DNA of 40,933 nt from a virus, in UHGV virus genome UHGV-0179541. One strand, 5' to 3'. The notes beneath the pieces were generated by a model. The model saw only the letters and a list, made by a program, of their open reading frames with translations, was not told the origin of the DNA and made no database searches. Positions within the stretch are counted from its first letter, which is position 1; the number at the start of each line of letters is the position of its first letter. Below are positions 1 to 40,933 of the stretch, in pieces. A program made the translations under genes and the position numbers.

Positions 1-762
1 TTACTACGCCATTGATAATACGCTTTTATATATTGAAGATGTAGAAAATAATAAACCATTAATCTAGCTAAAGTTGGATGCTTAAGAAATGCTTCATAAT
101 TCAGTAAGGCATTAGCATAATGGGAATAAAAGTACAGAGACTATCCCTATGGATGATAAATACTGTCCTTTTATTGCTACCCATAAATAATCACCATGCC
201 AATACTATCAAATTGATATTTGAAATGTGATCACTTGACTTTCTATACGTTATTTTATAACGGTTAATATATTTATAAAAACAACGGGTGTGCCATACGC
301 CCGTTTCAATACTTAACGCACATGTGTTTTGGTTTAGTCATCATCCAGTTATATGTATTTTAGCCAGGAACAGGTTAAACCTTTCCTATATAACTCAAAA
401 ATTGAAACCTTATTCTCATGTCATGCTTATATTCATTATTATCGTTATATAAAAAGGCAACCATAATGTTTAGCAAATTGGCACAAAGTAGCATAAAGGC
501 TATGTTTTAATTACAGGATGTTCAGTCATTTGAATGTATAACATTATAGCTAAACAAATCTAAAACGAAGTGAATAATTTATTGTTTTCACTAAATCTCA
601 TTTTGTTTAACATCCATTGAGATTCCTTGCTTTAAATTTTGTTTTATATAAGCAATCGTTTTAATTAATTTATTTTTTGAAGGGGTAATATACTCATATG
701 CAAAATAAAGAAATGAACATCCAAATGAACTATATTAAATACCGTGGGATAAGACATAACAA

Positions 763-1086
763 ATGAAGTGGATAGTAATTGACACGATAATTCAACCTTC
801 ATGCGGCATATCTTTTTCAGCCATATGGGGTAATATGAAAATGATCATCTGGTATCAATCTACTATATTTCTCCCTCCTGGCAGTATATTTACACCGGTT
901 AAATCTGGAATTATCCTTAAAGATAAAGAATATCCTATTACTATTTATAACATCGCACCATTCAACAAGGATTTATGGAGTCTACTCAAAAGCAGTCAAG
1001 AGTGTCCTCCAGGAGAAAGAAAAATAATAAATAAATGTTTGCATAATAGTTGCATTATAAAAATATGCCCATATGGGCTCAAGTAA
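763..1086 (+). CDS. iraM: IraM-like anti-adaptor protein, chromosomal flank outside the prophage
   Basis: 107-aa ORF in AT-rich flank next to the displaced icd fragment; N-terminus [12 protein letters not shown] recalled as IraM/YcgW, which neighbours e14 in E. coli K-12. Recall only, not searched. Confidence 0.5.
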
Positions 1087-1142
1087 AGGGTTTTATATAA
1101 ATATGCTCGATATGCTATTAATAATACCTACATAAATAAAAC

Positions 1143-1165
1143 AACGGGCGTGTTATACGCCCGTT
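1143..1165. terminator. Hairpin AACGGGCG-N7-CGCCCGTT, terminator-like, shared by iraM and the ancestral icd 3' end
   Basis: Perfect 8-bp stem read directly; T-rich tract follows on the minus strand; near-copy of the hairpin after the functional icd stop. Confidence 0.5.
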
Positions 1166-1188
1166 GCAATATTAAACACATGTAGTGA

Positions 1189-1353
1189 TTACATGTTCTT
1201 GATGATCGCATCACCAAATTCTGAACATTTCAGCAGTTTAGCGCCTTCCATCAGACGCTCGAAGTCATAGGTTACGGTCTTCGCATTGATTGCGCCTTCC
1301 ATACCTTTAACAATCAGGTCTGCGGCTTCAGTCCAGCCCATATGGCGTAACAT
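1189..1353 (-). pseudogene. icdC: icdC: displaced 3' fragment of icd (last 54 codons plus stop) at the prophage/chromosome junction
   Basis: About 165 bp homologous to 40541..40705; translates to [54 protein letters not shown], identical to the C-terminus of the icd ORF at the window end; homology stops at 1353. Confidence 0.85.
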
Positions 1354-1494
1354 TAGATTTAGAAAATTATTATATCCAATTGAATTAAAACAATTTTATA
1401 CTTAACGAACATCTAAACTTGTTTTTTTACCTTCACCATAACTCGCTGATTTTGTATAGTTTACGTAGCGTTTTGATAACCACTTTATGGCAAA

Positions 1495-1824
1495 ATGGAG
1501 GTTCGCTTGAAAACTTCTGTTCTTATCCAGAAATTAATGGAAATTGACAAAACTGTACTATTCGATGCGGACGTAGTGACCGGTGAGGAATGGTGGCCAA
1601 CCCCGATTTCTCGTGTTTATCACAATCCGCCACATACTTATGTAGAATTTTAAACAGGTGAACAATCTCAAAATGAATCTGACGAGCTAAGTGTTTATAG
1701 CGAATTACAAATTTGTGCACATCGAATGATGCAAATTAGAGATTTTGTGCAATCTAACGAGGGACTGAAACCTGAAAAAATTGTTTCGGAAATAAACATT
1801 CAAATTGAACGTATTAAAAAGTGA
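1495..1824 (+). pseudogene. Small reading frame interrupted by one in-frame TAA (1651..1653): 52 codons, stop, 56 codons
   Basis: Hand translation: MEVRLKTSVLIQKLMEIDKTVLFDADVVTGEEWWPTPISRVYHNPPHTYVEF, stop, TGEQSQNESDELSVYSELQICAHRMMQIRDFVQSNEGLKPEKIVSEINIQIERIKK; absent from the ORF track because each half is under 60 aa. Confidence 0.3.
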
Positions 1825-1889
1825 TGGCTGAAGCAATTCTGAAACACTAATTCATATTCTATGTTATTCATACCAATGTGGATTTAACT

Positions 1890-1929
1890 CCCACCAACCC
1901 ACCAACCCACCAACCCACCAACCCACCAA
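1890..1929. repeat. Tandem repeat (CCCACCAA) x5, 8-bp unit
   Basis: Read directly: five perfect head-to-tail copies, about 260 bp upstream of the DUF262 gene start. Confidence 0.9.
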
Positions 1930-2187
1930 CCATGATTGGGCGGCGCAAGAAACTAATATCAATTAAAACAGCAAGTTATCAGTCTAAACAGAACACCAAC
2001 GGGATGGAGGAGAGACAAAAAATATCCAATGAAACCGTAGCGCGTCAGCATTCAAAAGCGGGGTTTCTTATTTTTACTTCACCAGTAACAAATACACTGT
2101 ATCATAACTACATAAAAATGATTGTTCTGACTCAGATGAATTTCTTACTCTTGTGGAATGTCACTTAATGTTATTTATAGGTAAACA

Positions 2188-4077
2188 ATGAAATCCGAAA
2201 CGCTAACCATCCAGCAAATTTTCCAAAATCAACGACAATATCGTGTTCCATTCTATCAACGTGCCTACGTATGGACGCAACGAAACCAATGGTCAGCTTT
2301 GTTGGAGGATATCTTCGAAAAAGCACAGAGCCGACTTTCGGGAACAAAACCAACCCCTCATTTCCTCGGCGCGGTGGTGCTGGAACCTCAACTCAAAAAC
2401 AGCTTGTTAGGTGTAGATACCATACATATTATTGACGGCCAGCAACGTTTAACCACTCTTCAATATATTCTGGCATCCATTCGATTATCATTGCGTGCTA
2501 CAGGCCTTTCTGAACTGGAAGGGTTAGTATTGACTTGCTTGAAAAATACAAACGAAGCAACGATGAGAAATAAAAAGGTAGAATGCTTCAAACTGTGGCC
2601 AACTTTTCGAGATCAAACTCATTTTATTCAAAGTCTTAATGTTGATAATATTGACGATCTCCGTAATGTATTTTCTGATAGCTTCACGCAACATGGTACG
2701 TTACGTAAACATTTCAACCACCCGCCGTCACTAGAGGCATTATGGTTTTTTACTGAAGCCTTTATAAAATGGATTAAAATAGAAAAACACTCACCACAAG
2801 AAAATGCTGTAGCACTAATTGAGGCTGTCTTGACGGATCTGAAACTGGTAAGCATATTTCTCGAAGCTGAAGATGATGCCCAAATAATTTTTGAAACATT
2901 AAATGGGCGAGGAGCGGAACTTCATGCAACGGATCTTATTCGCAACTATATCTTTATGTGCGCTGAGCATGAAAATATTAATGCTATTGAATTATATGAA
3001 AATGAGTGGAAGATCTTTGAAGATAAATACTGGTCGGAAAAGCAACGCCGTGGACGTATTAATAAACCACGCATGGAGTGGCTTGTACATGCGACATTGC
3101 AATCAGAAAGGCAGCGTGAAATTGATCTGTCTCGCCTTTACAATGAGTATCGTGATTATGTAAGTAAGGACTTGCCTTCACAACGAGCAGATCTGCAAGT
3201 AAAGCGCCTCAAACAATATGCATCACAATATAAAGAATTGGTTGGTGGTTTTGGCACAACCCCCATCTCACACTTTAGACATCGCATCGCAGCCTATGAT
3301 GTGACGACACTCTATCCGCTTGCTTTGTTCATTTCGATAGCTAACATCGCCGATGATGAGAAAGCAGCCATGTATAATGATCTTGTCTCCTACGTAGTAC
3401 GAAGATCCGTATGTGGCCTGACGCCAAAGAATTACAACAATGTATTTATGAATGTATTGCGACACTTGTCTAAAACGGAAATTTCCAGTGTTGAGTTACG
3501 TAATATCCTCAATAGCTTAAATGGCGAAGCCTCACGTTGGCCTGGGGACTCAGAATTTCTCAACGCTTGCATCAATGCTCCACTTTATCCTGGCAGGCTC
3601 GACGCACCGAAAATGCGCTCAATGTTAACGGAACTTGAAAGAGAACTTTGTCGCCAAGTGAAGACAGAAAAGCCTGATGTTCCAAATCTTTCTAATCTCG
3701 ATATCGATCATCTTATGCCTCAAAGTTGGTATTCCTGTTGGCCTCTCGAAAATGGTCATATGGTGACAAATTCAGATGCTACGGTAATGAACCAAATTGT
3801 TCTGTCTGGAACCGATCTTACCCCTGAACAGCTACTGGTAAGGAAACGGCAACAAGCGATAGCTACGTTGGGAAATCTAACTTTGCTTAACCTTAGCGTA
3901 AACCGTTCCGTTCAGAATGCTGTATTTCTGAAAAAACGTGATGCTCTCATCGTCCATACCAATCTACGACTGAACATACCACTTATACTTAAGGATAAAT
4001 GGGATGAGAGTGAAATACTGGAGCGAGGTAAAAAGTTGGGGGAAATTGCATTGAAAGTATGGCCAAAATACGATTAA
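2188..4077 (+). CDS. DUF262/DUF1524 two-domain protein, GmrSD-family type IV (modification-dependent) restriction endonuclease-like
   Basis: N-terminal motifs VPFYQRAYVW and IIDGQQRLTTL (DUF262 / ParB-like signature DGQQR); C-terminal DIDHLMPQS region consistent with the DUF1524 His-Me finger; AT-richer than phage core. Confidence 0.75.
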   Translation: MKSETLTIQQIFQNQRQYRVPFYQRAYVWTQRNQWSALLEDIFEKAQSRLSGTKPTPHFLGAVVLEPQLKNSLLGVDTIHIIDGQQRLTTLQYILASIRLSLRATGLSELEGLVLTCLKNTNEATMRNKKVECFKLWPTFRDQTHFIQSLNVDNIDDLRNVFSDSFTQHGTLRKHFNHPPSLEALWFFTEAFIKWIKIEKHSPQENAVALIEAVLTDLKLVSIFLEAEDDAQIIFETLNGRGAELHATDLIRNYIFMCAEHENINAIELYENEWKIFEDKYWSEKQRRGRINKPRMEWLVHATLQSERQREIDLSRLYNEYRDYVSKDLPSQRADLQVKRLKQYASQYKELVGGFGTTPISHFRHRIAAYDVTTLYPLALFISIANIADDEKAAMYNDLVSYVVRRSVCGLTPKNYNNVFMNVLRHLSKTEISSVELRNILNSLNGEASRWPGDSEFLNACINAPLYPGRLDAPKMRSMLTELERELCRQVKTEKPDVPNLSNLDIDHLMPQSWYSCWPLENGHMVTNSDATVMNQIVLSGTDLTPEQLLVRKRQQAIATLGNLTLLNLSVNRSVQNAVFLKKRDALIVHTNLRLNIPLILKDKWDESEILERGKKLGEIALKVWPKYD

Positions 4078-4099
4078 TGCAATTAATAAAATGATTATA

Positions 4100-4123
4100 G
4101 CGGCCTTACATTAGTAAGGCCGC
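4100..4123. terminator. Hairpin GCGGCCTTA-CATTAG-TAAGGCCGC between convergent genes
   Basis: Perfect 9-bp stem immediately after the DUF262 gene stop; the truncated invertase frame terminates inside the loop. Confidence 0.6.
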
Positions 4124-4338
4124 AACTCACTATTAAATCCTTTAATTTGCATCAAGAACAGCACTGTCAGCCCTAGGCTCTCGGACTTTGTACCGCTTAT
4201 CTTGTCTTCAAAAATCAGCTCGCATCCTGCACAGTTAAACGCATTACGTTGTAGATCGATTTTCTGGTCATTTGTTGATACGCAAACATAGCCAATAAGC
4301 ATGGTAGCTCCCTCTGACAAAAGCAGGAATGATGCCAT
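4111..4338 (-). pseudogene. Truncated serine DNA invertase (Pin/Gin/Hin family), N-terminal 75 codons only
   Basis: MLIGYVCVSTNDQKIDLQRNAFNCAGCELIFEDKISGT matches the invertase N-terminus including the catalytic-serine region; frame ends after about 75 aa where a full invertase is about 190 aa. Confidence 0.75.
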
Positions 4339-4718
4339 TTTCTCGTTATTTCTGCATTTTCATAAACGTTGGTTTGGGAGAATTATCTCTGGCTGGCACT
4401 GCATCGGGTGTCATTGGTCTGAATGGGTATGTAACGATTCCGTTAATTATTTCAGGTTCCCGGAGAACACTGATTATTCAGTGGGGGCAGGCGAGATTTG
4501 GTGGGTCTGGTGGTGAAGATGCCGGATATCTTAATGATTTTCCTTTTGCCTTTCCGTCAGCATGTTATGGAATGATAGTTAGTCATGTGGGGCATACACC
4601 TTCAGGCGCAGGAATCCTGTCGGCTTCTGCAATTACATCAAATCAGTTCCGCGGTTTTTCAAGCATAGCGACTGCTGCAAATGCTGTATTAGGTCGTTAT
4701 ATCGCTATAGGGGGTTAA
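4329..4718 (+). CDS. Silent alternative tail-fibre C-terminal cassette (inverted orientation); ORF start not meaningful
   Basis: Shares the LIIQWG junction and 17-bp inverted repeat with the expressed tail-fibre gene; followed by its own Tfa gene. Confidence 0.5.
   Translation: MMPFSRYFCIFINVGLGELSLAGTASGVIGLNGYVTIPLIISGSRRTLIIQWGQARFGGSGGEDAGYLNDFPFAFPSACYGMIVSHVGHTPSGAGILSASAITSNQFRGFSSIATAANAVLGRYIAIGG
4470..4486. repeat. Left inverted repeat CTGATTATTCAGTGGGG of the tail-fibre inversion segment
   Basis: Exact reverse complement of 5768..5784. Confidence 0.8.
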
Positions 4719-4719
4719 T

Positions 4720-5157
4720 ATGTTTTATAGTCCATCATTAAACATTTTTGTGAATCCTGCGCTTAAGGATGATTACATTAATGCAAATTCATGGCCAGAT
4801 GATGCTCTGGCTGTCAGTGATGATGTTTATAATGAATTTGCAATCAATACGCCCCCATATGACAAAATTCGTGTTGCAGGAAAAAATGGATTACCCACAT
4901 GGGCACTAATACCTCCACCATCGCATGAAGAACTTATTCAACAGGCAGAATCAGAAAGGCAATTATTGCTTAATCAGGCCAACGAATACATGAACAGTAA
5001 ACAATGGCCCGGTAAAGCCGCTATTGGTCGTCTGAAAGACGAGGAACTGGCACTATATAATTTGTGGCTGGATTACCTGGACGCACTGGAACTGGTGGAT
5101 ACCTCCAGTGCTCCAGATATTGAATGGCCTACACCTCCGGTAACTCAGGCCAGCTAA
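4720..5157 (+). CDS. Tail fibre assembly protein (alternative cassette)
   Basis: 145 aa, Tfa-like C-terminus (DIEWPTPP), convergent with a second Tfa gene. Confidence 0.7.
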   Translation: MFYSPSLNIFVNPALKDDYINANSWPDDALAVSDDVYNEFAINTPPYDKIRVAGKNGLPTWALIPPPSHEELIQQAESERQLLLNQANEYMNSKQWPGKAAIGRLKDEELALYNLWLDYLDALELVDTSSAPDIEWPTPPVTQAS

Positions 5158-5554
5158 TCTCAGGAGCCGTCGAAGTGTCGACGGCTTTTACTTCTTTTTT
5201 GTAGTCCATCCAGGCGGATAGTTTTTCTTTATCTGTACTGCTGATATCACCAAGCATTAATTCCACTCGCCAGTCAGCTGTGACATTATCGGCATGAGCA
5301 AGTAACTGCATTCGCTGATTTTCAGCACGTGCGACATAATCAATCGCCGGAGATTTCAGTACCGGTAAACCATTTTCATCTGACGTGATTAATTTACCCC
5401 CTTCCTGCTGTCCGGCAATTAATTCATTGTATAAGTCTGTACTTATCTCAACAATGTCAGCAGGCATGTCGCTGTTTATACCATCAAAGAAAAAACCATT
5501 AGTCGATTTTGAGAAATAAATCATAGATATACCTATACACCGATTGCTACCCAA
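5129..5554 (-). CDS. Tail fibre assembly protein (expressed cassette)
   Basis: 141 aa, Tfa-like (EISWPELP), immediately downstream of the tail-fibre gene. Confidence 0.7.
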
Positions 5555-6189
5555 AAACAGGACCTTTCATATTTGACAATTTCTCCCTGAGATATACCGC
5601 CAACAATTATATAGAACTGTGATTTGGTGATATCAGAACAGTTCGCAATGCCCATTGCAGATATACCAGCCAACGACGTTGTATGTGGCACAGCCAACAG
5701 CGCAAGTGAACGATTTGGGAATGTTACCGGGTAAGTCACCGTATAGTTTGATGCTCCACTGACAATACCCCACTGAATAATCAGACCTGAAGGGAGTTTT
5801 TGAAAACCCGTTGATGAAAGTGAACTGGCAAACGCCGCCATATCCGGAATTTGGTTTTGCCCGTTACCTACATTCCGTTTTGCCGCTTCTCCCAAACCAA
5901 GGTTTTGAAGAGCCGTTTTCACCGTGCCGTCCGATTTGATATCGCCAAACGGATTTTTGCGACTTAACAGCAGCGCACGAAGCGCGGTAAGCAGCTGGTC
6001 ATGCCGCCCCTTCTCCAGGCTGGCACCGGATGCCTCCACCACGCTGCAGAGCTCTTCCTGCAACATGTCAAAGTAGTCATCATCCAGATCGGTGGCAGGC
6101 GTGCCGGTCTGGGGGTTACCACGGGTAAAACCGTTCTTACCCGCGCCGAACTTATCCTTCTGCGCGGTTTTCGTGTCTATACGATGCAT
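5533..6189 (-). CDS. Tail fibre protein (short, e14 Stf-like)
   Basis: 218 aa following the baseplate genes; C-terminal half begins at the inverted repeat. Confidence 0.65.
5768..5784. repeat. Right inverted repeat of the tail-fibre inversion segment (inside the tail-fibre gene)
   Basis: CCCCACTGAATAATCAG, reverse complement of 4470..4486; encodes LIIQWG in the tail-fibre frame. Confidence 0.8.
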
Positions 6190-6192
6190 GGA

Positions 6193-6777
6193 TTACTCCG
6201 GATATTTAAAAATTACGTAGGTATGCGACGGGCAGAGTTTGTTAAGCACACATTCGACAACTGTGTCGCCCCAGATACGCAGTGCGGAATCACAGGGATC
6301 GCCACATGTCATCCAGGTGGTGTTGGTGGCGGCTGGCATGTTGACCTGCCAGTAATACCGCCATTCAGGCGCGTTCACAGCGTCAGTACAGGCCGATGAG
6401 CAGGTGAACGTGCTTTTGTCGTATCGCGTGATGGTGGCATCTGGTCTGCCCAGGGCAGCAAGCTGTGCAAGATAAAAATCCTCGTTGATGCCGCCCGCCA
6501 GGTTAACCTTCGCATCCAGCCGTTGCTGACGCTGGCGAAGGGTCTGTGTCCCTGCGGGAATACATTCATCCGGCAGACCGCACAGACGCTCCCAGCGGTT
6601 TATCAGTTCAGTGGTGGTGCGCGGATCCAGCTCCCGCATCAGGGCATCCGCACGCTGATGAACGCGGGATAATGACGGTGCCGCACCGGCAATCGCCGGA
6701 TCGCTGGCTGACCACGCCGGACCGGGGGGCAACAGTGCCGACAACAGACGGATGTAATCATCGTTTGTCACGTCCAT
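6193..6777 (-). CDS. Baseplate protein, Mu gp48 / YmfQ-like (DUF2313)
   Basis: 194 aa; position and sequence consistent with the e14 YmfQ family. Confidence 0.6.
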
Positions 6778-7826
6778 GAAATCGTCCCCAGTACCGCCAG
6801 TTCATTTTTTGCAATGGAGATATTGTCTGCCGGTGCAAGCAACTGATGGCTGTATTCCCCGTTCGCACCGGAAATCGCCTCACTGATACGCGATACCTTC
6901 AGTTCTCCCTGCGGATAACCATCACGCAGCAGGAACGAACGCAACTCCGCGGTGATGGCAGCCCGTATTTCCGGTGTGTCCGGCGTCACACGGATATGAA
7001 AATCCACCGTATGTGCCACCGGCCTGAACACATACAAATCAGAGCCTGCCACCGGGGCCAGTGGCTCGATATGTTGTCTTGCCGCCGTTTCCGTTGATTC
7101 TTCCGGAATGGGATTAATCAGGTCACTGCTGGCTATCATCACACCGACAGTCCCCGTTCCCATCCAGTGTCGGTATGTCCATGCGCGGGTAATGCCGGGC
7201 ACTTCTTTAGCCCAGACGACATAGTCCCCGTCAGCCCCGCCCTGAGGCGTCCAGTAATACCGCTCAATGACGCGGGCGCGCCACGTTTCCAGCTCTTCAA
7301 TATCAAATCCACCTGTCAGGGTATCTGCCTCGCCGGAAGACGGCAGACCATTAACCGGCGTGACCAGGATTAATGACGTACCGTCGTCAGCGTTACCGAC
7401 CGCGCCTGCACTTGAGCAGGCGATCGGCACGCGCAGGACACCACCGGTGCTGGTTGCATCGGCAGTTGCCGTGTACTGAACCAGGTCATCGCGCTGAATA
7501 ACACTTCCGGCGGTCACCTTCAGGCCATCGCTGACACCTTCCCAGCGCATATACCCGCTGGCAGCCGTGGCCCCCTTGCGCGGACACCGTTTCATCGCAG
7601 CATGTCGCGCCAGCCAGGACTCATCGCACAGGTCAGGCAGCATGTTCATTGCCAGATAATCGATGTACCCGTAAACCGTATGCAGCGCCGCCGCATACAC
7701 CTTTGCCCGCACGTCTTCATCCATGCGCCGGAGCGTGTCGCTGACGTCCAGCCTGGCGAATAAATCGTTACGGAGCATACTGATATTTTCTGCCAGCGTC
7801 GGGCGCTGAAATTCACTGTCCGCCAT
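6768..7826 (-). CDS. Baseplate J-like protein (Mu gp47-like)
   Basis: 352 aa, conserved position in the Mu-type baseplate cluster. Confidence 0.65.
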
Positions 7827-8241
7827 GCGTTATCGCACTCCACAGATCATCAAAAGAAATCATTACCGGTCCGTCACGACGCCAGAGAGTGATACTGTTA
7901 CCCAGTTCATTAATCCCGGTGCGGCGGATATCCAGATCAATACGGGACACCACGCCGTCATCAATCATCCATTGCAGGCATTCGCGGATATACCCCCTTA
8001 CCGTCTGCACCAGTTGATTGGTCAGTTTGCTGCGCTGAAGCAGCCACAGTCGGGAGCCGTAACGGTCATTCTGTACCGCAGGCCAGGTATCCCCCCACCA
8101 TCCCATCGGGACGTCGGCATTGTCATCAGGCTCCGCCCGCCGCCAGGTAAACAGGGAAATCACCACGGCGCGGGTCAGCGGATCCAGCGGTGCGCTGGCG
8201 CAGGTGCGTTTACCGTTCACCGTCAGCCACAGTTCCATCAT
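7813..8241 (-). CDS. Baseplate protein, Mu gp46-like
   Basis: 142 aa, position between gp45-like and gp47-like genes. Confidence 0.55.
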   Translation of the reverse strand: MMELWLTVNGKRTCASAPLDPLTRAVVISLFTWRRAEPDDNADVPMGWWGDTWPAVQNDRYGSRLWLLQRSKLTNQLVQTVRGYIRECLQWMIDDGVVSRIDLDIRRTGINELGNSITLWRRDGPVMISFDDLWSAITHGGQ

Positions 8242-8786
8242 GCCTCCATCGCTTTATCAGGTTTGTCGGTGTTACTGCCCTGACCGTTCTCTCTGTGACG
8301 ATGCCCGTTATAGGCAAGCCGCATCGCTGACATGGTGGTGCCGCCGGAGTCGCACAGGTCTTTCACCTGTCCGGTCACTTCAAGGTCCATTTCAAAACGT
8401 GCTTTAGGTGAATTGCGAAACGTGATCGTTTTACCTGCACCGTCCACCACGATCCCCTCCCGGGTCAGCGTCACGGACTGCCCCTGATCGTCATAGACAG
8501 CCACCTCACCCGTCTGCAGCCCTTTCAGGCGGTAGCGCCGGTCCGACACCGTAACAACCACCGCATGAGAACGGTCGCCATCCGGAAACAACACCACCGC
8601 TTCCGCACCGCTGTTTGCCCTTGCGGTAAAACCGTAGGGTTCAAGATGTTCAACCCCGGCTTTGGGTTCACCGGCAATCAGGGACACATCCACGGTCTGA
8701 CATTTCGTGGCGGCACTGATGCTTTTCACCACCGCCCGCCCAATCAGGCCGAGGAGTTGTCGCTGTATGGTTTCAATCGCCTTCAT
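8238..8786 (-). CDS. Baseplate assembly / spike protein (Mu gp45-like)
   Basis: 182 aa, synteny. Confidence 0.55.
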   Translation of the reverse strand: MKAIETIQRQLLGLIGRAVVKSISAATKCQTVDVSLIAGEPKAGVEHLEPYGFTARANSGAEAVVLFPDGDRSHAVVVTVSDRRYRLKGLQTGEVAVYDDQGQSVTLTREGIVVDGAGKTITFRNSPKARFEMDLEVTGQVKDLCDSGGTTMSAMRLAYNGHRHRENGQGSNTDKPDKAMEA

Positions 8787-9865
8787 CAGAACGGGTCCTC
8801 CTGTACTCTGGCTTTTTTCTTTTTCCGCGCGCCGGGGGCTTCGGGTTCAGGCAGATAAGCATCAGGTGGGCCGACACGGATTTCCGTCAGGGTGCCATTC
8901 TGGTCCTGAGTAAACGTGACTTCCGAGACAAGCAGTTCGGTATTGTCGAAACCACAGACCGGATCGAAGACAATCACCCGCTGGTTGGGCTGCCACAGCG
9001 TACCGTTACCCTGTCGCCAGCCCTGCACCACATAGGTGGTTTCATCCGTCCGCGCCGCCCGTTGCCGGGCTTCAAAGTCAGCACGGGCAATACAGCCTGC
9101 CCCCGTGGCCTGCCCTGTCTGCCTGATATACATCGGACGGTAACGGGCAATAAATGCGTCCTCTGTGCGGGCCCGCAGCGCGGTGGTGGTGGCCTCACCG
9201 AAATCATCGTCGTTTCCGGCACGCTGCCCCGCCACCTGGTAAACTGAAAACCGCTCCCGGATACTCTTCTCCGTATCACAGGAAAGGATGTTTTCCCCAA
9301 GTACCAGCGCGGTATGTGCCCGCGTTGAGCCAATACCGCCAATCACCAGCCTGCCGTGCGGGTCGTCATAAGCCAGCGCCTGCTGCTGACCGAGTATTTT
9401 GTTGATTACCTCAATCACCGTTTCACCGTGATCAGGCTGGACATCAGGAATAACACCCGACGGCGCACCGCTGTTCACCACCTCAATGCCGAAAGGCGCA
9501 GCAAGCGCCTGCGCAATCTGTACCAGCGATCGTCCGTTAAACTGTGTCGGTTCGGCTGCACAGTCAATCAGGTCAGCGGTCAGACTGCGTCCGGCAATAC
9601 CGGTGCTGACCGAACGGGCATCGTAACGAACGGGCGTCGCCTCCACCCAGCCGGTGATCACCAGCTCATCACCAATCAGCACCTCCACTTTTGAACCGTT
9701 TTTAATGCGCGGCTGAAGCGTGGTGATACCCTCATCTCCCGGCCACTGGCGGGTGATCTCCACACTGAAATCCCGCGCCAGTCGTTCAACACCGGCACCG
9801 ATGCGCACCGATGTCCAGCCATTCCACTCCCGGCCATTTACCCGTAGCGTGACGTTATCGTTCAT
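8786..9865 (-). CDS. Baseplate hub / tail protein (Mu gp44-like)
   Basis: 359 aa, synteny after the DNA-circularisation-like gene. Confidence 0.55.
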   Translation of the reverse strand: MNDNVTLRVNGREWNGWTSVRIGAGVERLARDFSVEITRQWPGDEGITTLQPRIKNGSKVEVLIGDELVITGWVEATPVRYDARSVSTGIAGRSLTADLIDCAAEPTQFNGRSLVQIAQALAAPFGIEVVNSGAPSGVIPDVQPDHGETVIEVINKILGQQQALAYDDPHGRLVIGGIGSTRAHTALVLGENILSCDTEKSIRERFSVYQVAGQRAGNDDDFGEATTTALRARTEDAFIARYRPMYIRQTGQATGAGCIARADFEARQRAARTDETTYVVQGWRQGNGTLWQPNQRVIVFDPVCGFDNTELLVSEVTFTQDQNGTLTEIRVGPPDAYLPEPEAPGARKKKKARVQEDPF

Positions 9866-30298: not shown

Positions 30299-30621
30299 AC
30301 TTTCATGCCCCTCTCATGTAACCAGTGGGTCGCACGCAGCCTGGCGTTTTCCTCACCGGCAAGCAGTGCGCGGATAATCCCGACCGCCTCGCTGTCGTCG
30401 TCCTTGACCGCGGTATGAAGCGTTATCCCCCGGGCCACGCCACGCTTTATCGTGATGACGCCTTTTTTCTCCAGTGCGCGAAGATGCTCTACCGCTGCAT
30501 TCACCGAACGATATCCCAGCATGGTTGCCACCTCCTGATTGGTTGGCGGGAAGCCCCGTTCTTTCTGGTAAGAAATCAGCATATCCAGCACCTGCTGCTG
30601 GCATTGAGTTAATGTCGTCAT
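30295..30621 (-). CDS. LexA-N-like winged-helix DNA-binding protein
   Basis: 108 aa; helix-turn-helix region resembling the LexA DNA-binding domain; no peptidase domain. Confidence 0.4.
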   Translation of the reverse strand: MTTLTQCQQQVLDMLISYQKERGFPPTNQEVATMLGYRSVNAAVEHLRALEKKGVITIKRGVARGITLHTAVKDDDSEAVGIIRALLAGEENARLRATHWLHERGMKV

Positions 30622-31271
30622 GCCGCCATCTCCATGACCAGTTTTTCCGCCTGCAGGCGAACCTGCGCCAGAAACGCCTCACCACATGCCTCAAGTTCAT
30701 CGCGCCCAATGTAGCTGATTGCCGCTCCCTTCCAGGTCTTGTCGAAAACAGCAATAGCACCAGCGAAGAAAGCGCCTGTCGGCACCTGCTTCTCATCCTT
30801 CGGGATAAACCAGGCAGGCAGTTCAAAACCAATACGCCCGCGAATAAAAGCAATATGGTCCGCATCTTCCGGCCACCACACTTCGCTGGTGGCAGCTTTG
30901 ATCAGGAAAACATAGCGCCCACCCTTATCACGCATGGCACTGGCATGTTTCATGATGTAACGCATGCCGGTGATGTATTGCCCCTCATGCTGACTGGCGC
31001 GGCTGTATGGGGGATTACCAAAGGCAGCACCTTTAAGCTCCGCAAGACGTTCTGACCAGTCATGCGCCAGCGCGTTGTCTTCCGCCGTGTAATACGCAGC
31101 GCATTTGGCGTTATCACCGTCAGTAAACAGATCCAGAACAAACGGGCCAAACAGGGTGTTAATTCCCCAGAAAATGTTGTCCGGTGTGCGCCACTGATCG
31201 CCCACTTCCTTCAGTTCATGGGCTGGTTTGTTCCGCAGTTCCACCAGCGCCTGGCAATATTTATTACTCAT
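30618..31271 (-). CDS. Phage N6-adenine DNA methyltransferase (Dam-like, orphan)
   Basis: NPPY catalytic motif (GNPPYS); start at ATG overlapping the upstream stop (TAATG); no adjacent restriction gene. Confidence 0.7.
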   Translation of the reverse strand: MSNKYCQALVELRNKPAHELKEVGDQWRTPDNIFWGINTLFGPFVLDLFTDGDNAKCAAYYTAEDNALAHDWSERLAELKGAAFGNPPYSRASQHEGQYITGMRYIMKHASAMRDKGGRYVFLIKAATSEVWWPEDADHIAFIRGRIGFELPAWFIPKDEKQVPTGAFFAGAIAVFDKTWKGAAISYIGRDELEACGEAFLAQVRLQAEKLVMEMAA

Positions 31272-31765
31272 TAAGCCCCCACGTAATTCCCTGACAGATA
31301 CCACTCTTCACCCGATGCAGCGCGCTTGCTGCTTTTCCGTAAGCACCGCTCACGACGCGCCAGAAAATTGTTTCGTTCTGGCTGGGAGTGGCTTTCACGG
31401 AATGCCGCCATCCACACCGTTGCAGCACGACGGTATAAGTCCCTGGACTCCAGTTCTTCAGCCTGGCGGATCAGGCACAAAATCACCCGCGGGTCGTTAG
31501 TGCCGACATAGAAATTGCGCACAGGTCTGGTTTCACGAACTGGTTGTGGTTCCGGCTCCTGCGCTCTCTCAGTCAGGCGCGGGAAATGTCTGCGTGTATC
31601 TCCTTCACAACGGTGAGCCACACGCCCACTCTGACGTAACTTGCTTGCTGACTGCAGAACGCGCTGCCGTGAGTAACCGGCAAAAGCATCCGCAATGTCT
31701 CCGGAAGTACAGCCCGGATGGGCTTCAATGAATTTCTGAACGTCATTTAACAGACTCATGATCAC
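31271..31765 (-). CDS. Hypothetical early protein downstream of the replication gene
   Basis: 164 aa, basic, translationally coupled to neighbours. Confidence 0.4.
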   Translation of the reverse strand: MIMSLLNDVQKFIEAHPGCTSGDIADAFAGYSRQRVLQSASKLRQSGRVAHRCEGDTRRHFPRLTERAQEPEPQPVRETRPVRNFYVGTNDPRVILCLIRQAEELESRDLYRRAATVWMAAFRESHSQPERNNFLARRERCLRKSSKRAASGEEWYLSGNYVGA

Positions 31766-35680: not shown

Positions 35681-35926
35681 ATGCTTCAAATGTTAACTCT
35701 TGAAGAATGGGCTACTGAAAAATACAGAAGCAATCCTCCAAGCGTGTCCACATTGCGTCGTTATGCTAAGCAGAATTTATTTTGCCCACCGGCCATGAAA
35801 CAAGGTCGGTTATGGCGAGTGCGTGAGGACGCCGAATTAGTTGGGGAGTTGGTAACGCCAATAATTAAGAAAAATGACTCATTACTTTTGCAACGGATTT
35901 TGAGTGATGGCAGCCAGACCGCGTAA
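35681..35926 (+). CDS. xis: Excisionase-like protein
   Basis: 81 aa overlapping the integrase start, the usual xis position. Confidence 0.55.
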   Translation: MLQMLTLEEWATEKYRSNPPSVSTLRRYAKQNLFCPPAMKQGRLWRVREDAELVGELVTPIIKKNDSLLLQRILSDGSQTA

Positions 35927-37034
35927 GAATAATGTTTCAGTCCCTAACTTATATCCGCTTTATAGTAGGAAGGTAAATAAAGTCTATTGGCGGTATAAGC
36001 ATCCAGTAACAGGAAAATTCCATGCTTTGGGAACAAACGAAGCTGAAGCTATCGCTATTGCCACTGAGGCCAACACTCGCCTGGCTGAACAAAGAACCCG
36101 GCAGATTCTGGCTATCAGTGACAGGATCGCAACCAGCAAAGGAAAGGCTATCACAACGTCAACCTGGTTAGATCGCTATCAAGCGATCCAGGATGACAGG
36201 CTTAAAAGTGGTGATATAAGACTCAACACCTATAAGCAAAAAGCTAAACCAGTATCCTTGCTCAGAGAACGAGCAGGAATGAAGTTGATCTCAGCCGTTG
36301 ATGTAAGAGATATAGCACAATTGCTTGACGAGTATATCGCTGCCGGGCAGCCGAGAATGGCGCAAGTCGTAAGGTCTGTATTGATCGATGTATTTAAGGA
36401 AGCACAGCATTATGGCGAAGTTCCGCCAGGGTATAACCCTGCTCTTGCGACGAAGCAACCCAGACGGAAAATTACCCGTCAACGCCTCAGCCTGGAAGAA
36501 TGGCAAAAAATATTCGATATCGCAGACGCCACTCATCGTTATATGGGAAATGCCATGCTCCTAGCTTTGGTCACTGGGCAGCGTTTGGGAGATATATCCA
36601 AAATGAAATTTAGTGATATTTGGGAGGATCATCTTCACGTCATTCAGGAAAAGACTGGAAGCAAAATCGCTATCCCTCTTTCTCTACGTTTGAATGCTAT
36701 CAATTGGAGCCTACGAGATGTAGTAGCTCGCTGCCGTGACTACGCAGTGAGCCCATACTTGGTGCATTTTTTCCGTTCAACCTCACAAGCAGAACGTGGT
36801 GCACAGGTTAAATCCAATACATTGACGATGAATTTTAGTAAAGCAAGGGATTTAGCAGGGATTGACTGGGGGGATGGCTCACCTGCCACATTCCATGAAC
36901 AAAGGTCTTTATCTGAACGCCTGTACAAAGAACAGGGGTTAGATACGCAAAAATTACTTGGTCATAAAACACAACAGCAGACCGATCGTTACCATGATGA
37001 TCGAGGCAAAGGATGGAGCAAAGTAGCATTGTGA
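35904..37034 (+). CDS. int: Tyrosine integrase (phage integrase family, icd-specific e14 / phage-21 type)
   Basis: 376 aa; C-terminal catalytic region ending HKTQQQTDRYHDDRG; prophage sits in icd. Confidence 0.85.
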   Translation: MMAARPRKNNVSVPNLYPLYSRKVNKVYWRYKHPVTGKFHALGTNEAEAIAIATEANTRLAEQRTRQILAISDRIATSKGKAITTSTWLDRYQAIQDDRLKSGDIRLNTYKQKAKPVSLLRERAGMKLISAVDVRDIAQLLDEYIAAGQPRMAQVVRSVLIDVFKEAQHYGEVPPGYNPALATKQPRRKITRQRLSLEEWQKIFDIADATHRYMGNAMLLALVTGQRLGDISKMKFSDIWEDHLHVIQEKTGSKIAIPLSLRLNAINWSLRDVVARCRDYAVSPYLVHFFRSTSQAERGAQVKSNTLTMNFSKARDLAGIDWGDGSPATFHEQRSLSERLYKEQGLDTQKLLGHKTQQQTDRYHDDRGKGWSKVAL

Positions 37035-37390: not shown

Positions 37391-38350
37391 ATGGAAAGCT
37401 ATACTTTTGAATTGAAAGGAAATGTATTTGGCTTTTTTCAACGCAATGGTGAGGATTGTTTTTTATACATTAACACTGGTTTATTCCCTAAAGTAACCTA
37501 CTACCAATGGAGTCATTGGCAACGAGGAAAGGATAACTATAATGAAACATATCCTGATGCAATAAAAACAGATGAAATAGCAAAGGCGATTGGTTATTTT
37601 TCTTGGAATCAATGCTTTGATCGTTGTCCATACCAACCTATAGTTATCAGTTTATCTAAAAAAACAGAAGCAGGAATATTCTACCCTAGAATGAATAGAG
37701 GAGAACCAAAACTATATAACCAACAAATAGCGGAGGCACGAATCCTTGATGAAGTAAGGTCTTTTAATAATATATGTGATTCATTAAATGAATTATTTAA
37801 CTATATAGATCCTGATACTGGTAATTTGAGTTGTTTTGGTAATAAAATCAGAGAAATATTAATTATTGCATGTACTGAGGTTGAATACTTACTTCACAAT
37901 TTTCTTACAGATAATGGTTACACTGTTAACAACAATAGATTTAGTACTAACGATTATGTTAAATCTCTTGGTTTGCTGAAATTAGATGGGTATTCTACGA
38001 GGCTCGTTTACTATCCATATTTGCAAGAGTGGTGCCCATTTAGTGGTTGGGATGAATCTAAACCAACTACTAGTTTGACTTGGTATGACGCATATAATGC
38101 AGTTAAGCATAATCGCGGAACAAACAAGCAAAAGGCATCTCTTAACGCTGTAATAAATGCAGTAGCTGCCATTCATATTTTACTCGTAGCTCAATATGGG
38201 AGTGAGATATTTAATAGCCCGATGCACTCTAATTTCTCAAGCATTTTTAATACAACGAAATATCCTTCTTTCTTAGCAAATGATCTTCAGTGCCCAACAA
38301 TGAATCATGATCAAATCCTATGGGATAAAAAGTCATATTTATTTTCATAA
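37391..38350 (+). CDS. Hypothetical cargo protein, 319 aa, Trp/Tyr/Cys-rich, AT-rich (candidate single-gene defence or Abi protein)
   Basis: Strong ribosome-binding site (AAAGGAAACAAT ATG); AT-rich by eye; between int and the att site; no family recognised. Confidence 0.55.
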   Translation: MESYTFELKGNVFGFFQRNGEDCFLYINTGLFPKVTYYQWSHWQRGKDNYNETYPDAIKTDEIAKAIGYFSWNQCFDRCPYQPIVISLSKKTEAGIFYPRMNRGEPKLYNQQIAEARILDEVRSFNNICDSLNELFNYIDPDTGNLSCFGNKIREILIIACTEVEYLLHNFLTDNGYTVNNNRFSTNDYVKSLGLLKLDGYSTRLVYYPYLQEWCPFSGWDESKPTTSLTWYDAYNAVKHNRGTNKQKASLNAVINAVAAIHILLVAQYGSEIFNSPMHSNFSSIFNTTKYPSFLANDLQCPTMNHDQILWDKKSYLFS

Positions 38351-38513: not shown

Positions 38514-39533
38514 TCAATTATTTTTTTTATCAATTATATGACCACTGTTAGTGCCATAATACTTACCAGAAGCAACACCTTGCTTATAAAAATCATTCAA
38601 TACTTTTATTAGCAATCGTGCATCTGATGCATCTTTTATTACTAGCCTACCATTTTTTTCCTCTAACTTAGCACCTTCGAATATATTTAACGTTTCTTGA
38701 TATTTTATTATTATGTCAGGACTTAAATTTTCGTGGTTCTTTTTTTGAGCTATGCTCGCAATAGTTCGCTGAAGTGTTTTATTAGTTAAAATAACCTCTT
38801 CCAGAATTTTTATATTATCTATAATAGAAGCATCAGAAATAACCTTTAACACACTTCTTGCATTTTCCACAAATTCTTTTTCGATCCCGATAATTTGTTC
38901 AAACCCCAATTTCGATACAATATAAATCTTGTTATTTTTAAAGATAAAATCTATTTTTTTGTCAAAACTCACTGTCTGCATCGGAACGACTTTCATTGTA
39001 GCACTATTAACATCAAAGATAGCCTGCATTTTTTGAAAGGTATTCAATGGAGTATCTGTTGCCACCTTAGATTTTGTTAGCTTCCTATAAATGGTAAAAC
39101 CATCATCTTGTGTAGATATTTTTAAACAAAAAGCCAATATATCAGACTTAACTTCCTCTAGACTCTTTAATATATTTATTCCTGAGCCTTTATTTATTTT
39201 TTCTAATACTTTCCTGAATTCAAGGTCTTCAATATTTGCATAACCATAAATAGCGTCAGTCCCATCATCAGAAATCACTGAGTAGTCATGATACTCTAAT
39301 TCGTTGTTGCCTACCATTTTGTTTAATGTATCCAATGACCCAGTTTTAAAAAAATCCACCATTTTTTTGTCAAGACTCACCTTATAGATATCAAATATAA
39401 ATCTGTTTTCTGATGAGACTGAAGAATCTTTATTAATTTTCTTTGTTATCAAATAACATTTCATCGAAAATGTATTCGAGTGATAAAGATTCATTAGTGA
39501 ATTTAAAATACCTTTAATGTCTATTTCCGTCAT
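38514..39533 (-). CDS. Soluble 339-aa cargo protein, second gene of the two-gene operon (Kiwa KwaB-like by layout only)
   Basis: Start ATG overlaps the upstream stop (TAATG); Lys/Asn/Ile-rich, no TM segment; very AT-rich. Confidence 0.55.
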   Translation of the reverse strand: MTEIDIKGILNSLMNLYHSNTFSMKCYLITKKINKDSSVSSENRFIFDIYKVSLDKKMVDFFKTGSLDTLNKMVGNNELEYHDYSVISDDGTDAIYGYANIEDLEFRKVLEKINKGSGINILKSLEEVKSDILAFCLKISTQDDGFTIYRKLTKSKVATDTPLNTFQKMQAIFDVNSATMKVVPMQTVSFDKKIDFIFKNNKIYIVSKLGFEQIIGIEKEFVENARSVLKVISDASIIDNIKILEEVILTNKTLQRTIASIAQKKNHENLSPDIIIKYQETLNIFEGAKLEEKNGRLVIKDASDARLLIKVLNDFYKQGVASGKYYGTNSGHIIDKKNN

Positions 39534-40153
39534 TATTCTAATTCCTGATATTTAGCATAGAAGAGTTTGTAACCAATCTTTTGAATTTTGATACTGTCAT
39601 CTTCGTCCAAATATTTATTCGAACAAATTATCATTCCTTTCTTTTTTTGGCCGCCACTATTTATATACTCAATGCTGTAAAGTGAGTACTTTATAGCTAA
39701 AGTTGGATTTATAAGAATCATTGATGAGTTAGAATAAATAAGAAATGTAACCAGTAGCAGAATAGCTAAAGAAAATACACTCATGGGGTCAGAAAGATCT
39801 TGAAAAAGAAATGGCAGAAGATATGTAAAAAGATAACTTATAGATTCACTGTTTTTATTTTCTATGTCGACTATTTTTACAAAATCCCCATCATTATCAA
39901 TGCGTCTTTCCATATTTGATAATAAGAATATTAAACCAACAATACCAAAAACGACAAGAAGAAATATAATCGTAACCGCACCAAAATTTTCAATGTATAA
40001 TATTAATGCCTTCTTGTTCACCCCCCCCCAGTTGAGGTAATCTTTTTTCTTGTATAGTTGATTTACGGTCATAATTAAAAACAAAGGCATGTAAGACACC
40101 AAAAATAGTGTCAACCTTGCTCCTATTTTTAACTCTTCTTTTCGTGATGACAT
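39533..40153 (-). CDS. Four-helix membrane protein, first gene of the two-gene operon (Kiwa KwaA-like by layout only)
   Basis: Hydrophobic helices at roughly aa 20-37, 63-86, 111-125 and 131-148 of the track ORF; probable ATG start at 40153 after GAGG; contains the G9 tract. Confidence 0.55.
   Translation of the reverse strand: MSSRKEELKIGARLTLFLVSYMPLFLIMTVNQLYKKKDYLNWGGVNKKALILYIENFGAVTIIFLLVVFGIVGLIFLLSNMERRIDNDGDFVKIVDIENKNSESISYLFTYLLPFLFQDLSDPMSVFSLAILLLVTFLIYSNSSMILINPTLAIKYSLYSIEYINSGGQKKKGMIICSNKYLDEDDSIKIQKIGYKLFYAKYQELE
40021..40029. repeat. Homopolymer tract, 9 C on plus strand (G9 in the membrane-protein coding strand)
   Basis: Read directly; encodes WGGV. Confidence 0.9.
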
Positions 40154-40438
40154 AGTTCCAAAACCTCGAATCAACGCTTTCTTAGGTACTGATAACTGTA
40201 CCTAGTTTAACCTATAATATCTATGCAACATATTGATATATTGGTTAAAATTCCTTCTTTGATATCCCCTTACTTTCCCATTGATCAGTATGAAAAAACG
40301 TGAGCAATGTCCGTTATTGGCACTGAACGGACCTAAATATTAACGAGCATCCACCTGAAATGATCATAAAAAACTGAGGTATGCCTAATTGGAACTAGGT
40401 AATAGGGCTACCCTCTGAACATCCAAACTACTAGGGGG

Positions 40439-40540: not shown

Positions 40541-40933
40541 TTACATGTTTTTGATGATTGCGTCGCCAAACTCGCTACATTTCAGCAGTTTAGCACCTTC
40601 CATCAGACGTTCAAAATCGTAAGTTACGGTCTTGGCGTTGATCGCGCCTTCCATACCTTTAACAATTAAATCAGCCGCTTCGGTCCAACCCATGTGGCGT
40701 AACATCATCTCAGCGGAGAGAATAATAGAGCCAGGGTTTACTTTGTCCTGACCGGCGTATTTCGGCGCAGTACCGTGGGTGGCTTCAAACAGGGCGCATT
40801 CGTCACCGATGTTTGCTCCAGGGGCGATACCGATACCGCCAACCTGCGCTGCCAGAGCGTCAGAAATGTAGTCACCGTTCAGGTTCATACAGGCGATAAC
40901 ATCATATTCAGCCGGACGCAGCAGGATCTGTTG
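40541..40933 (-). CDS. icd: Isocitrate dehydrogenase, 3' portion (gene continues beyond the window)
   Basis: C-terminal sequence [38 protein letters not shown]; ORF open to the window edge. Confidence 0.9.

Follow-up and report, generated by a model that had tools for sequence, protein, structure and literature searches.

A GmrSD restriction gene adjoins a truncated Pin-type invertase gene and an invertible tail-fibre segment at the icdC end of an SfII-like Escherichia coli prophage

We analysed the virus genome UHGV-0179541, a stretch of 40,933 nucleotides (nt) that is called the window throughout. It holds a prophage of ~39 kb that lies in icd, the site also used by the Escherichia coli element e14, and that appears complete. 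At one prophage end a type IV restriction gene, gmrSD, converges on the remnant of a Din-family invertase gene (pin'), which is followed by an invertible tail-fibre segment. The features of this end, in window coordinates and with lengths of open reading frames (ORFs) in amino acids (aa), are as follows.

2071-2187, plus strand: gmrSD upstream region, common to all lineages; 2071 is the left limit of homology in GZM7-type loci
2188-4077, plus strand: gmrSD, a 629-aa ORF for a single-chain type IV modification-dependent restriction endonuclease of the CT596/Eco94 allele type
4100-4123: hairpin with perfect 10-bp GC-rich stems (4100-4109 and 4114-4123) and the loop ATTA (4110-4113)
4124-4166: 3' tail of the gmrSD cassette up to the pin junction, the breakpoint being resolvable only to ~4145-4167
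4302-4167, minus strand: pin', all that is left (codons 1-45) of a gene for a Din-family serine invertase; a pseudogene
4111-4338, minus strand: mechanical 75-codon ORF made of 12 codons upstream of the Pin start, ~45 Pin codons and ~18 cassette codons
4357-4382: proximal crossover site of the pix type, TTTTCATAAACGTTGGTTTGGGAGAA, conserved in all lineages and in e14
4383-5886: invertible segment with a pair of alternative fibre C-termini and a pair of assembly genes
4329-4718, plus strand: fibre C-terminus 1
4720-5157, plus strand, and 5129-5554, minus strand: tail-fibre assembly genes
5533-5886 of the gene 5533-6189, minus strand: fibre C-terminus 2
5887-5912: distal crossover site, TTCTCCCAAACCAAGGTTTTGAAGAG, the inverted partner, inside the constant part of the tail-fibre gene

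The analysis confirms this layout, which is common among E. coli genomes and has for the most part been described before, and the gene is a known enzyme in a known setting: the published gmrSD neighbourhood is likewise prophage-borne, beside tail-fibre genes and a phage invertase. The published accounts of EcoCT596GmrSD and Eco94GmrSD do not include the truncation of the invertase, the icd site or continuing inversion.

The ORF at 2188-4077 was matched by both Pfam domains that a preliminary description of this DNA had placed there, GmrSD_N/DUF262 (PF03235; residues 8-256, E = 1.4e-33) and GmrSD_C/DUF1524 (PF07510; residues 451-619, E = 3.8e-19), and over its full length by the PADLOC model mREase_IV (1516 bits). 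The N-terminal DUF262 domain is NTPase/ParB-like. The product of the ORF was compared with the reference GmrSD sequences that appear in Fig. S1 of He et al. 2015 (PMC4437046). It is identical at 626/629 residues (99.5%) to EcoCT596GmrSD (substitutions K200N, R364G and L611Q) and, again at 626/629 (99.5%), to Eco94GmrSD (K200N, R316H and R364G); identity to UTI89GmrSD (UTI89_C2960) is 584/629 (92.8%), and the S88 allele equals UTI89GmrSD at all 629 of 629 residues. The DGQQR motif is intact (first residue 83), the His-Me finger residues D507, H508 and N522 are all kept, and every one of the 16 residues mutated by He et al. 2015 (D217, E228, D230, D249, E260, E262, E271, E273, E278, K280, D507, H508, C517, N522, N528 and N535) is unchanged at the same position. 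The D507A, H508A and N522A mutants of the published enzyme are inactive (PMC4437046). The earlier label "GmrSD-like" named the right family but understated the relationship: judged by its sequence, the gene is GmrSD proper, the known and characterised anti-T4 enzyme. EcoCT596GmrSD and Eco94GmrSD (Bair & Black 2007; He et al. 2015, PMC4437046) are likewise 629-aa single chains with DGQQR and D507-H508-N522, and their host element is an SfII-like prophage with the gene straight after the tail-fibre genes.

In published work, EcoCT596GmrSD and Eco94GmrSD cleave DNA that carries glucosylated 5-hydroxymethylcytosine (glc-5hmC) or 5-hydroxymethylcytosine (5hmC), with stimulation by ATP (He et al. 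2015, PMC4437046); T4 delta-ip1 is restricted ~10^6-fold, and lambda-vir is unrestricted (PMC4437046). Inhibition by the T4 protein IPI* is likewise known for these enzymes. Because of its near-identity to these assayed enzymes, the window GmrSD would be expected to cut the glucosyl-5hmC or 5hmC DNA of T-even phages, to be stimulated by nucleoside triphosphates and to be countered by the injected T4 protein IPI*. It is scarcely credible that gmrSD is a decaying, non-functional passenger here. Such a reading could appeal to the UTI89 allele, whose purified product is inactive in vitro and whose strain does not restrict T4 (PMC4437046), but the 629-codon frame in the window is intact, the three differences from each of the two active alleles touch no known catalytic residue, and the identical protein is present on 359 public contigs. 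The ratio of nonsynonymous to synonymous divergence (dN/dS) between the CT596-type allele of the window and the UTI89-type allele is 0.17, which indicates purifying selection on gmrSD.

The divergence between these two allele types is unevenly spread along the gene. Codons 1-200 (2188-2787) account for 30 of the 45 amino-acid differences and have a dS of 0.70, against 0.07 in the other 429 codons (2788-4074). This mosaic pattern suggests an exchange of the N-terminal part of gmrSD by recombination between allele types. UTI89GmrSD has been reported to be insensitive to IPI* (PMC4437046), and the N-terminal mosaicism may be related to the difference in IPI* sensitivity reported between alleles.

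To the right of gmrSD, the pin' remnant was aligned with K-12 pinE. In the e14 of K-12 the homologous position has pinE followed by mcrA, as the preliminary description had it, and then icdC. By BLAST, K-12 homology covers window 717-1363 (94%; iraM to 8 bp past icdC) and returns at 4167-4382 (90%; pinE nt 1-136, leader and crossover site); this comparison with e14 maps the breakpoints, window 1364-4166 corresponding to K-12 1209821-1211404 (the pinE 3' end and mcrA). Pin itself starts with the ATG at 4302, homologous pinE sequence stops at 4167, and pin codons from ~46 to the end are gone. Over nt 1-136 of K-12 pinE the identity is 90%. The invertase had been described as truncated to 75 codons; a Pin-type truncation is indeed present, but only ~45 of these codons are Pin. 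The end of the frame inside the hairpin loop was described correctly, the stop TAA (4113-4111) lying within ATTA. The Resolvase profile PF00239 matches the ORF over positions 2-54 of 145 only, and the annotation pipeline PGAP labels the identical locus in CFSAN061769 as a partial recombinase without its C-terminus. The remnant falls short of a full-length Din invertase, in which ~184-190 aa make up a catalytic domain at the N-terminus and a DNA-binding helix-turn-helix domain at the C-terminus, and even the active-site motif YxRVSTxxQ is not intact, reading YVCVSTNDQ (Arg to Cys) in the window. The change of YVRVS to YVCVS is also found in 14EC001; S88 and GZM7 instead carry a 1-nt deletion with a frameshift further downstream. 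From these sequences we conclude that pin' is decaying as a pseudogene, and differently by lineage.

The DNA joined to pin' is a conserved cassette of ~2.1 kb (~2071-4166) made of the promoter region, gmrSD, the hairpin and 43 bp. Megablast matches to GZM7- and S88-type loci stop at 4163-4166; the right breakpoint is blurred to ~4145-4167 because of residual similarity there. A promoter scan gave a promoter-like site at 2078-2105 (TTCACC, 16 nt, TATCAT; 9/12 matches to consensus, a call made on consensus match alone). The hairpin begins 22 nt past the gmrSD stop, belongs to the cassette and is conserved in all lineages. Against shuffled controls its fold is far more stable, with z-scores of -4.7 (plus strand) and -5.2 (minus strand); between aligned lineages it differs by single, non-compensated changes. 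The preliminary description had given gmrSD its own terminator; the hairpin is real and conserved, but its role as a terminator is doubtful. Its tail on the plus strand, AACTCACTATTAAATCC, has no T-run or U-tract, a terminator scan called it on neither strand, and a canonical rho-independent terminator of gmrSD was therefore rejected. The minus-strand tail, TATAATCATTTTATT, is more T-rich, and the hairpin possibly acts on the pin strand instead.

Compared with e14 alone, the junction could be read as a recent local swap, in which an e14-type element at icd lost the pinE 3' end together with mcrA and gained gmrSD in place: what is replaced relative to K-12 amounts to precisely the 3' end of pinE together with mcrA, with the icdC flank and the pin 5'/pix flank kept. 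We therefore give the distribution of the junction in 5426 complete E. coli genomes, the survey set for all genome counts below. Any match to the cassette was found in 310/5426, and a 301-bp query spanning the junction was matched at a coverage of at least 80% in 303/5426. The full window-type stretch at icd occurs in 54 genomes, a small group is 96% identical, and ~220 genomes, S88 and APEC O1 among them, carry the cassette at 92% identity. The junction lies in icd, near paoD and a LysR-family pseudogene, near tRNA-Pro and yejM, and at the S88/UTI89 locus; in all four chromosomal contexts the recombinase is annotated as partial. In four aligned lineages, aligned together with K-12 pinE, the junction of cassette and pin' is base-for-base equal, and the prophage lineages that carry it are ~7-8% diverged.

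The same junction in diverged lineages and at least four contexts points to one old event and argues against a recent swap at icd. The copies near paoD, near tRNA-Pro/yejM and at the S88/UTI89 locus, which are 92-96% identical to the window, count against an exchange at icd, as do the nature of the window prophage, which is full-length and SfII-like and is not e14, and the identity of pin' to e14 pinE, which is only 90%; no intermediate with mcrA was seen. An in-place swap is thus very improbable, and we regard it as largely refuted already. The earlier statement that gmrSD has replaced the 3' end of the invertase gene holds as a description of the arrangement relative to e14, but not as a swap of mcrA for gmrSD in place at icd. 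Judged from these alignments, the truncation is a single old event that travels with the SfII/e14-like phage family.

We also considered two unrelated events, in which gmrSD first stood beside an intact invertase gene and a later deletion fused the two. Relatives such as MIN10 and strain 48 have other cargo convergent with an intact pinE, so cargo need not truncate pin. However, gmrSD beside an intact invertase was found in none of the 310 genomes with a cassette match, nor in any of the 303 with the junction. The same search had been proposed earlier for a case that would separate truncation from insertion; it yielded none among the complete E. coli genomes, and the DGQQR and His-Me motifs were intact as described above. 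Among GTDB species representatives only two loci were matched, in Enterobacteriaceae bacterium B14 (80%) and in Nitrospira (46%). The B14 homologue lies in a non-phage island and supplies no intermediate; its homology ends at the stop codon and so does not reveal where the hairpin and cassette tail came from, a point on which the Nitrospira homologue is also uninformative. By megablast, sequenced phage records matched only the pin 5' end and pix, and none of them contains gmrSD. Taken together, a two-step origin is improbable.

The proximal crossover site contains the e14 repeat TTGGTTTGGGAGAA reported in PMC12529663. In OkiPb01685 the prophage is 99.7% identical and shares both the icd site and pin' with the window, and window 4383-5886 is exactly inverted, the limit of inversion falling exactly at the crossover site with 1 mismatch in ~1500 nt; the inverted counterpart of window 4357-5912 spans 7225-8830 of the extracted locus L007. 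With orientation-specific queries, 15 gmrSD-linked copies had the window orientation and 14 were flipped. The sister isolates 22-245 (5,073,334 bp) and 22-250 (5,073,329 bp) carry the segment at the same coordinates in opposite orientation, their prophages differing in nothing but this orientation. Since the truncation is older than the lineage split of ~7-8%, these inversions came after the loss of the cis invertase, and the simplest mechanism for inversion without a cis invertase is an invertase in trans. PinQ and PinR are known to invert the e14 P segment in trans (PMC12529663). The comparisons thus suggest that the tail-fibre segment is still inverting, most simply through an invertase that acts in trans.

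The same observations bear on whether pin' and the hairpin have been kept because they function, as cis elements for inversion in trans and/or, together with the pin promoter, as a unit of convergent transcription or termination that limits a toxic gmrSD. A stretch homologous to the hin enhancer is retained in pin' (~4216-4282) at the right distance from the crossover site; the hin recombinational enhancer is a 65-bp element ~100 bp from hix (PMC3798978). Continued inversion without a cis invertase, with the retained 136 bp spanning this region, would fit a functional pin', and the more T-rich flank on the pin strand would fit a functional hairpin, as would the toxicity of gmrSD overexpression, for which He et al. 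2015 (PMC4437046) suggested tight native regulation. On the other hand, there is one breakpoint only, so that retention of the enhancer may be chance, and divergence between lineages over the cassette tail and pin' (window 4078-4382) is 5.9%, near the dS (0.07) of the adjacent part of gmrSD, with no extra constraint visible. Retention for function is therefore possible but doubtful.

Next, we compared relatives that share the baseplate genes, ymfQ and the invertible tail-fibre layout and that carry other genes after the invertase.

e14: mcrA after pinE
MIN10: LEM-3-like GIY-YIG gene that converges on an intact pinE
CFS3292: gene for a DUF4145 protein, beside a frameshifted pin
Strain 48: gene for a 215-aa hypothetical protein, beside an intact pinE
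ON470579 (Escherichia phage vB_EcoM-606R2), 3133-4297 of locus L008: convergent 281-aa ORF that abuts an invertase gene cut at codon 104
TL20, 3643-5283 of locus L006: 445-aa ORF, with only the last ~145 bp of the cassette (gmrSD 3' end and hairpin) and pin' left
GPEC206-621, 5001-9633 of locus L009, at the icd attR: genes for a type II restriction-modification system (restriction enzyme and cytosine methyltransferase) and for a LEM-3-like GIY-YIG protein

The 281-aa ORF of ON470579 had no Pfam or PADLOC match. By sequence, the invertase here was truncated independently of pin'; the record includes the host genes tadA, pgpC and yfhH and is thus a prophage prediction with host flanks. In TL20, whose prophage adjoins tRNA-Arg and intS, the arrangement is read as a second replacement layered on the gmrSD replacement. 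Its 445-aa protein gave weak matches to Lit and PD-Lambda-2_B (E ~6e-4), and the ORF may be an unrecognised defence gene. GPEC206-621 has a different tail (S74 peptidase fibre), yet window 1364-1905 (542 bp) is present at the same icd attR. The other cargo of these relatives supports turnover at the prophage end, in agreement with the defence-gene turnover proposed at the outset, and the sequences support the view that cargo varies between the invertase and the prophage end across the SfII/e14-like family. Cargo and defence hotspots have been described in other temperate phages, in P2 (Rousset et al. 2022) and with iLund4u (bioRxiv 10.1101/2024.10.15.618418). They too are variable positions beside tail-fibre and invertase genes that hold defence-type genes; unlike P2, the present case belongs to the SfII/e14-like family, and two replacements, by gmrSD and by the 281-aa ORF of ON470579, cut into the invertase gene.

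The explanation that we favour joins these results. A ~2.1-kb cassette would have been joined once to the invertase gene of an ancestral phage by illegitimate recombination, and the joining event would have deleted pin from ~codon 46 onward. The junction would then have been inherited unchanged by lineages in at least four chromosomal contexts while pin' decays. In this scheme pin' keeps the crossover site and, by hin homology, presumably the recombinational enhancer, so that the 1.5-kb tail-fibre segment would stay invertible and be flipped by an invertase from elsewhere in the genome. The interval from the invertase to the prophage end would hold mcrA in e14, gmrSD here and other nuclease-like or uncharacterised genes in relatives. 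With high confidence we hold the combined reading of gmrSD as an accessory gene at the tail-fibre end of a myovirus prophage in icd, of one ancestral joining of cassette and pin, of a switch flipped in trans and of a variable cargo position. On a bolder proposal we are evenly divided: capture of gmrSD may have orphaned a host-range switch, with pin' left as a cis element only and the fibres flipped by the invertases of other resident prophages, so that receptor choice would depend on the other mobile elements of the host; the interval from invertase to attR would then be a defence hotspot with nested, datable scars (mcrA, gmrSD and the TL20 445-aa gene).

Several points weigh against the favoured explanation. 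If phages had passed the whole tail-fibre/gmrSD module to one another by homologous recombination, the pattern would look the same as after one inherited event; this agrees with the explanation but leaves the age of the event uncertain. As to the proposed trans-acting invertase, megablast showed only one pinE-like place in 22-245 and 22-250. A Fis-dependent recombinational enhancer in pin' is putative, being assigned through hin homology only, and a remnant that diverges like neighbouring synonymous sites shows no sign of selection keeping it. The inactive UTI89 allele is 93% identical, and sequence identity leaves the restriction phenotype not fully certain.

Comparison with known switches sets the arrangement in context. 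Gin/G of Mu, Cin/C of P1, Pin/P of e14 and Hin/H of Salmonella have, like the window, two inverted 26-bp sites, alternative fibre C-termini and assembly genes, with an invertase gene that starts by one site and an enhancer region, only putative in the window, in its 5' part, and the invertases of the Din family are known to cross-complement. Unlike in those switches, the cis invertase of the window is dead, and its switch would depend wholly on an invertase encoded elsewhere. With e14 the window shares icd integration, iraM and icdC flanks, homologous pix sites and the order of invertible tail-fibre segment, invertase gene, type IV restriction gene and attR. However, e14 is a 15-kb defective remnant with an intact pinE, whereas the window prophage has ~39 kb and a pin cut at codon 45. 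The e14 mcrA encodes an HNH enzyme and runs in the same direction as pin, whereas gmrSD is unrelated to it and convergent with pin. At the other prophage end e14 has lit and the window has Kiwa. The gene content typical of e14 (lit, intact pinE and mcrA) is thus not that of the window, which has Kiwa, pin', gmrSD and an SfII-like morphogenesis module. UTI89GmrSD is the same gene with the same hairpin and pin' junction in a related SfII-like prophage; it differs in its chromosomal context and in extra upstream cargo.

The remaining features of the window concern the prophage and its flanks.

763-1086, plus strand: iraM, as in K-12
1189-1353, minus strand: icdC, the 54-codon duplicated icd 3' end on the attR side, matching positions 301-348 of 348 of the Pfam profile Iso_dh
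1364-2070: spacer from attR to the cassette, specific to the icd lineage, with no recognised gene and no e14 homology
30618-31304, minus strand: gene for a phage-type Dam methyltransferase in the early region (PF05869, E = 6e-45)
35904-37034: gene for a lambda-type integrase, at the integrase-proximal prophage end
38514-39533, minus strand: KwaB gene (PADLOC 1.3e-121; Pfam KwaB)
39533-40174, minus strand: KwaA gene (PADLOC 2.3e-95)
40541-40888, minus strand: icd 3' part, at the other window end

The left end of the window is the iraM-icdC neighbourhood of K-12 in reverse orientation. The morphogenesis genes match those of Shigella phage SfII at 98% identity, and the prophage that carries gmrSD in Eco94 was likewise described as SfII-like (He et al. 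2015, PMC4437046). A second copy of the icd-terminator hairpin with downstream sequence (88%; 278-320 compared with 1137-1179) lies ~450 bp beyond iraM, which is thus bracketed by two copies. The K-12 iraM-bluR interval contains no second copy within 3 mismatches, and the one in the window may have been left by an earlier insertion at icd. In the spacer, alignment begins from 1967 for S88, from 1988 for 14EC001 and from 2071 for GZM7. Two small ORFs within 1364-2187 (52 and 96 aa) had no Pfam or PADLOC match, and an Rfam search of window 1-6500 gave no match. Between attR and gmrSD lies a perfect tandem array of the octamer CCCACCAA (1890-1931, 5.2 copies), of which the CFSAN061769 locus, otherwise 99.7% identical, has 4 copies; the copy number thus varies among strains. 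A complete Kiwa system is found between int and icd (38514-40174, minus strand), so that defence cargo lies at both prophage ends. The 319-aa ORF at 37391-38350 (plus strand) had no Pfam or PADLOC match.

E. coli itself is Dam+. The preliminary description had proposed the Dam methyltransferase of the prophage as a possible target of, or protection against, GmrSD. We found no link of the prophage Dam to GmrSD, and an interaction was rejected: the GmrSD substrates are glc-5hmC and 5hmC, lambda-vir is unrestricted, and on Dam+ Dcm+ lambda DNA the published enzyme has Mn2+ star activity only (PMC4437046).

The seemingly new details (one junction in 303 genomes, a dead invertase with an active switch and nested cargo replacement) are modest and fit established ideas, and the current understanding of GmrSD and of phage defence hotspots is unchanged by them. 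The analysis mainly settles the annotation of the "DUF262 domain-containing protein" at this prophage end, present in ~6% of complete E. coli genomes, as the classic anti-T-even enzyme GmrSD. This bears on forecasts of how susceptible such strains are to therapeutic phages of the T4 type and of whether inhibitors like IPI* are needed. The single ancient junction, which marks all copies, is a useful lineage marker. A dead adjoining invertase beside a switch that still flips would show that a phage switch can be operated in trans in nature, at a prophage end that repeatedly exchanges nuclease-type cargo.

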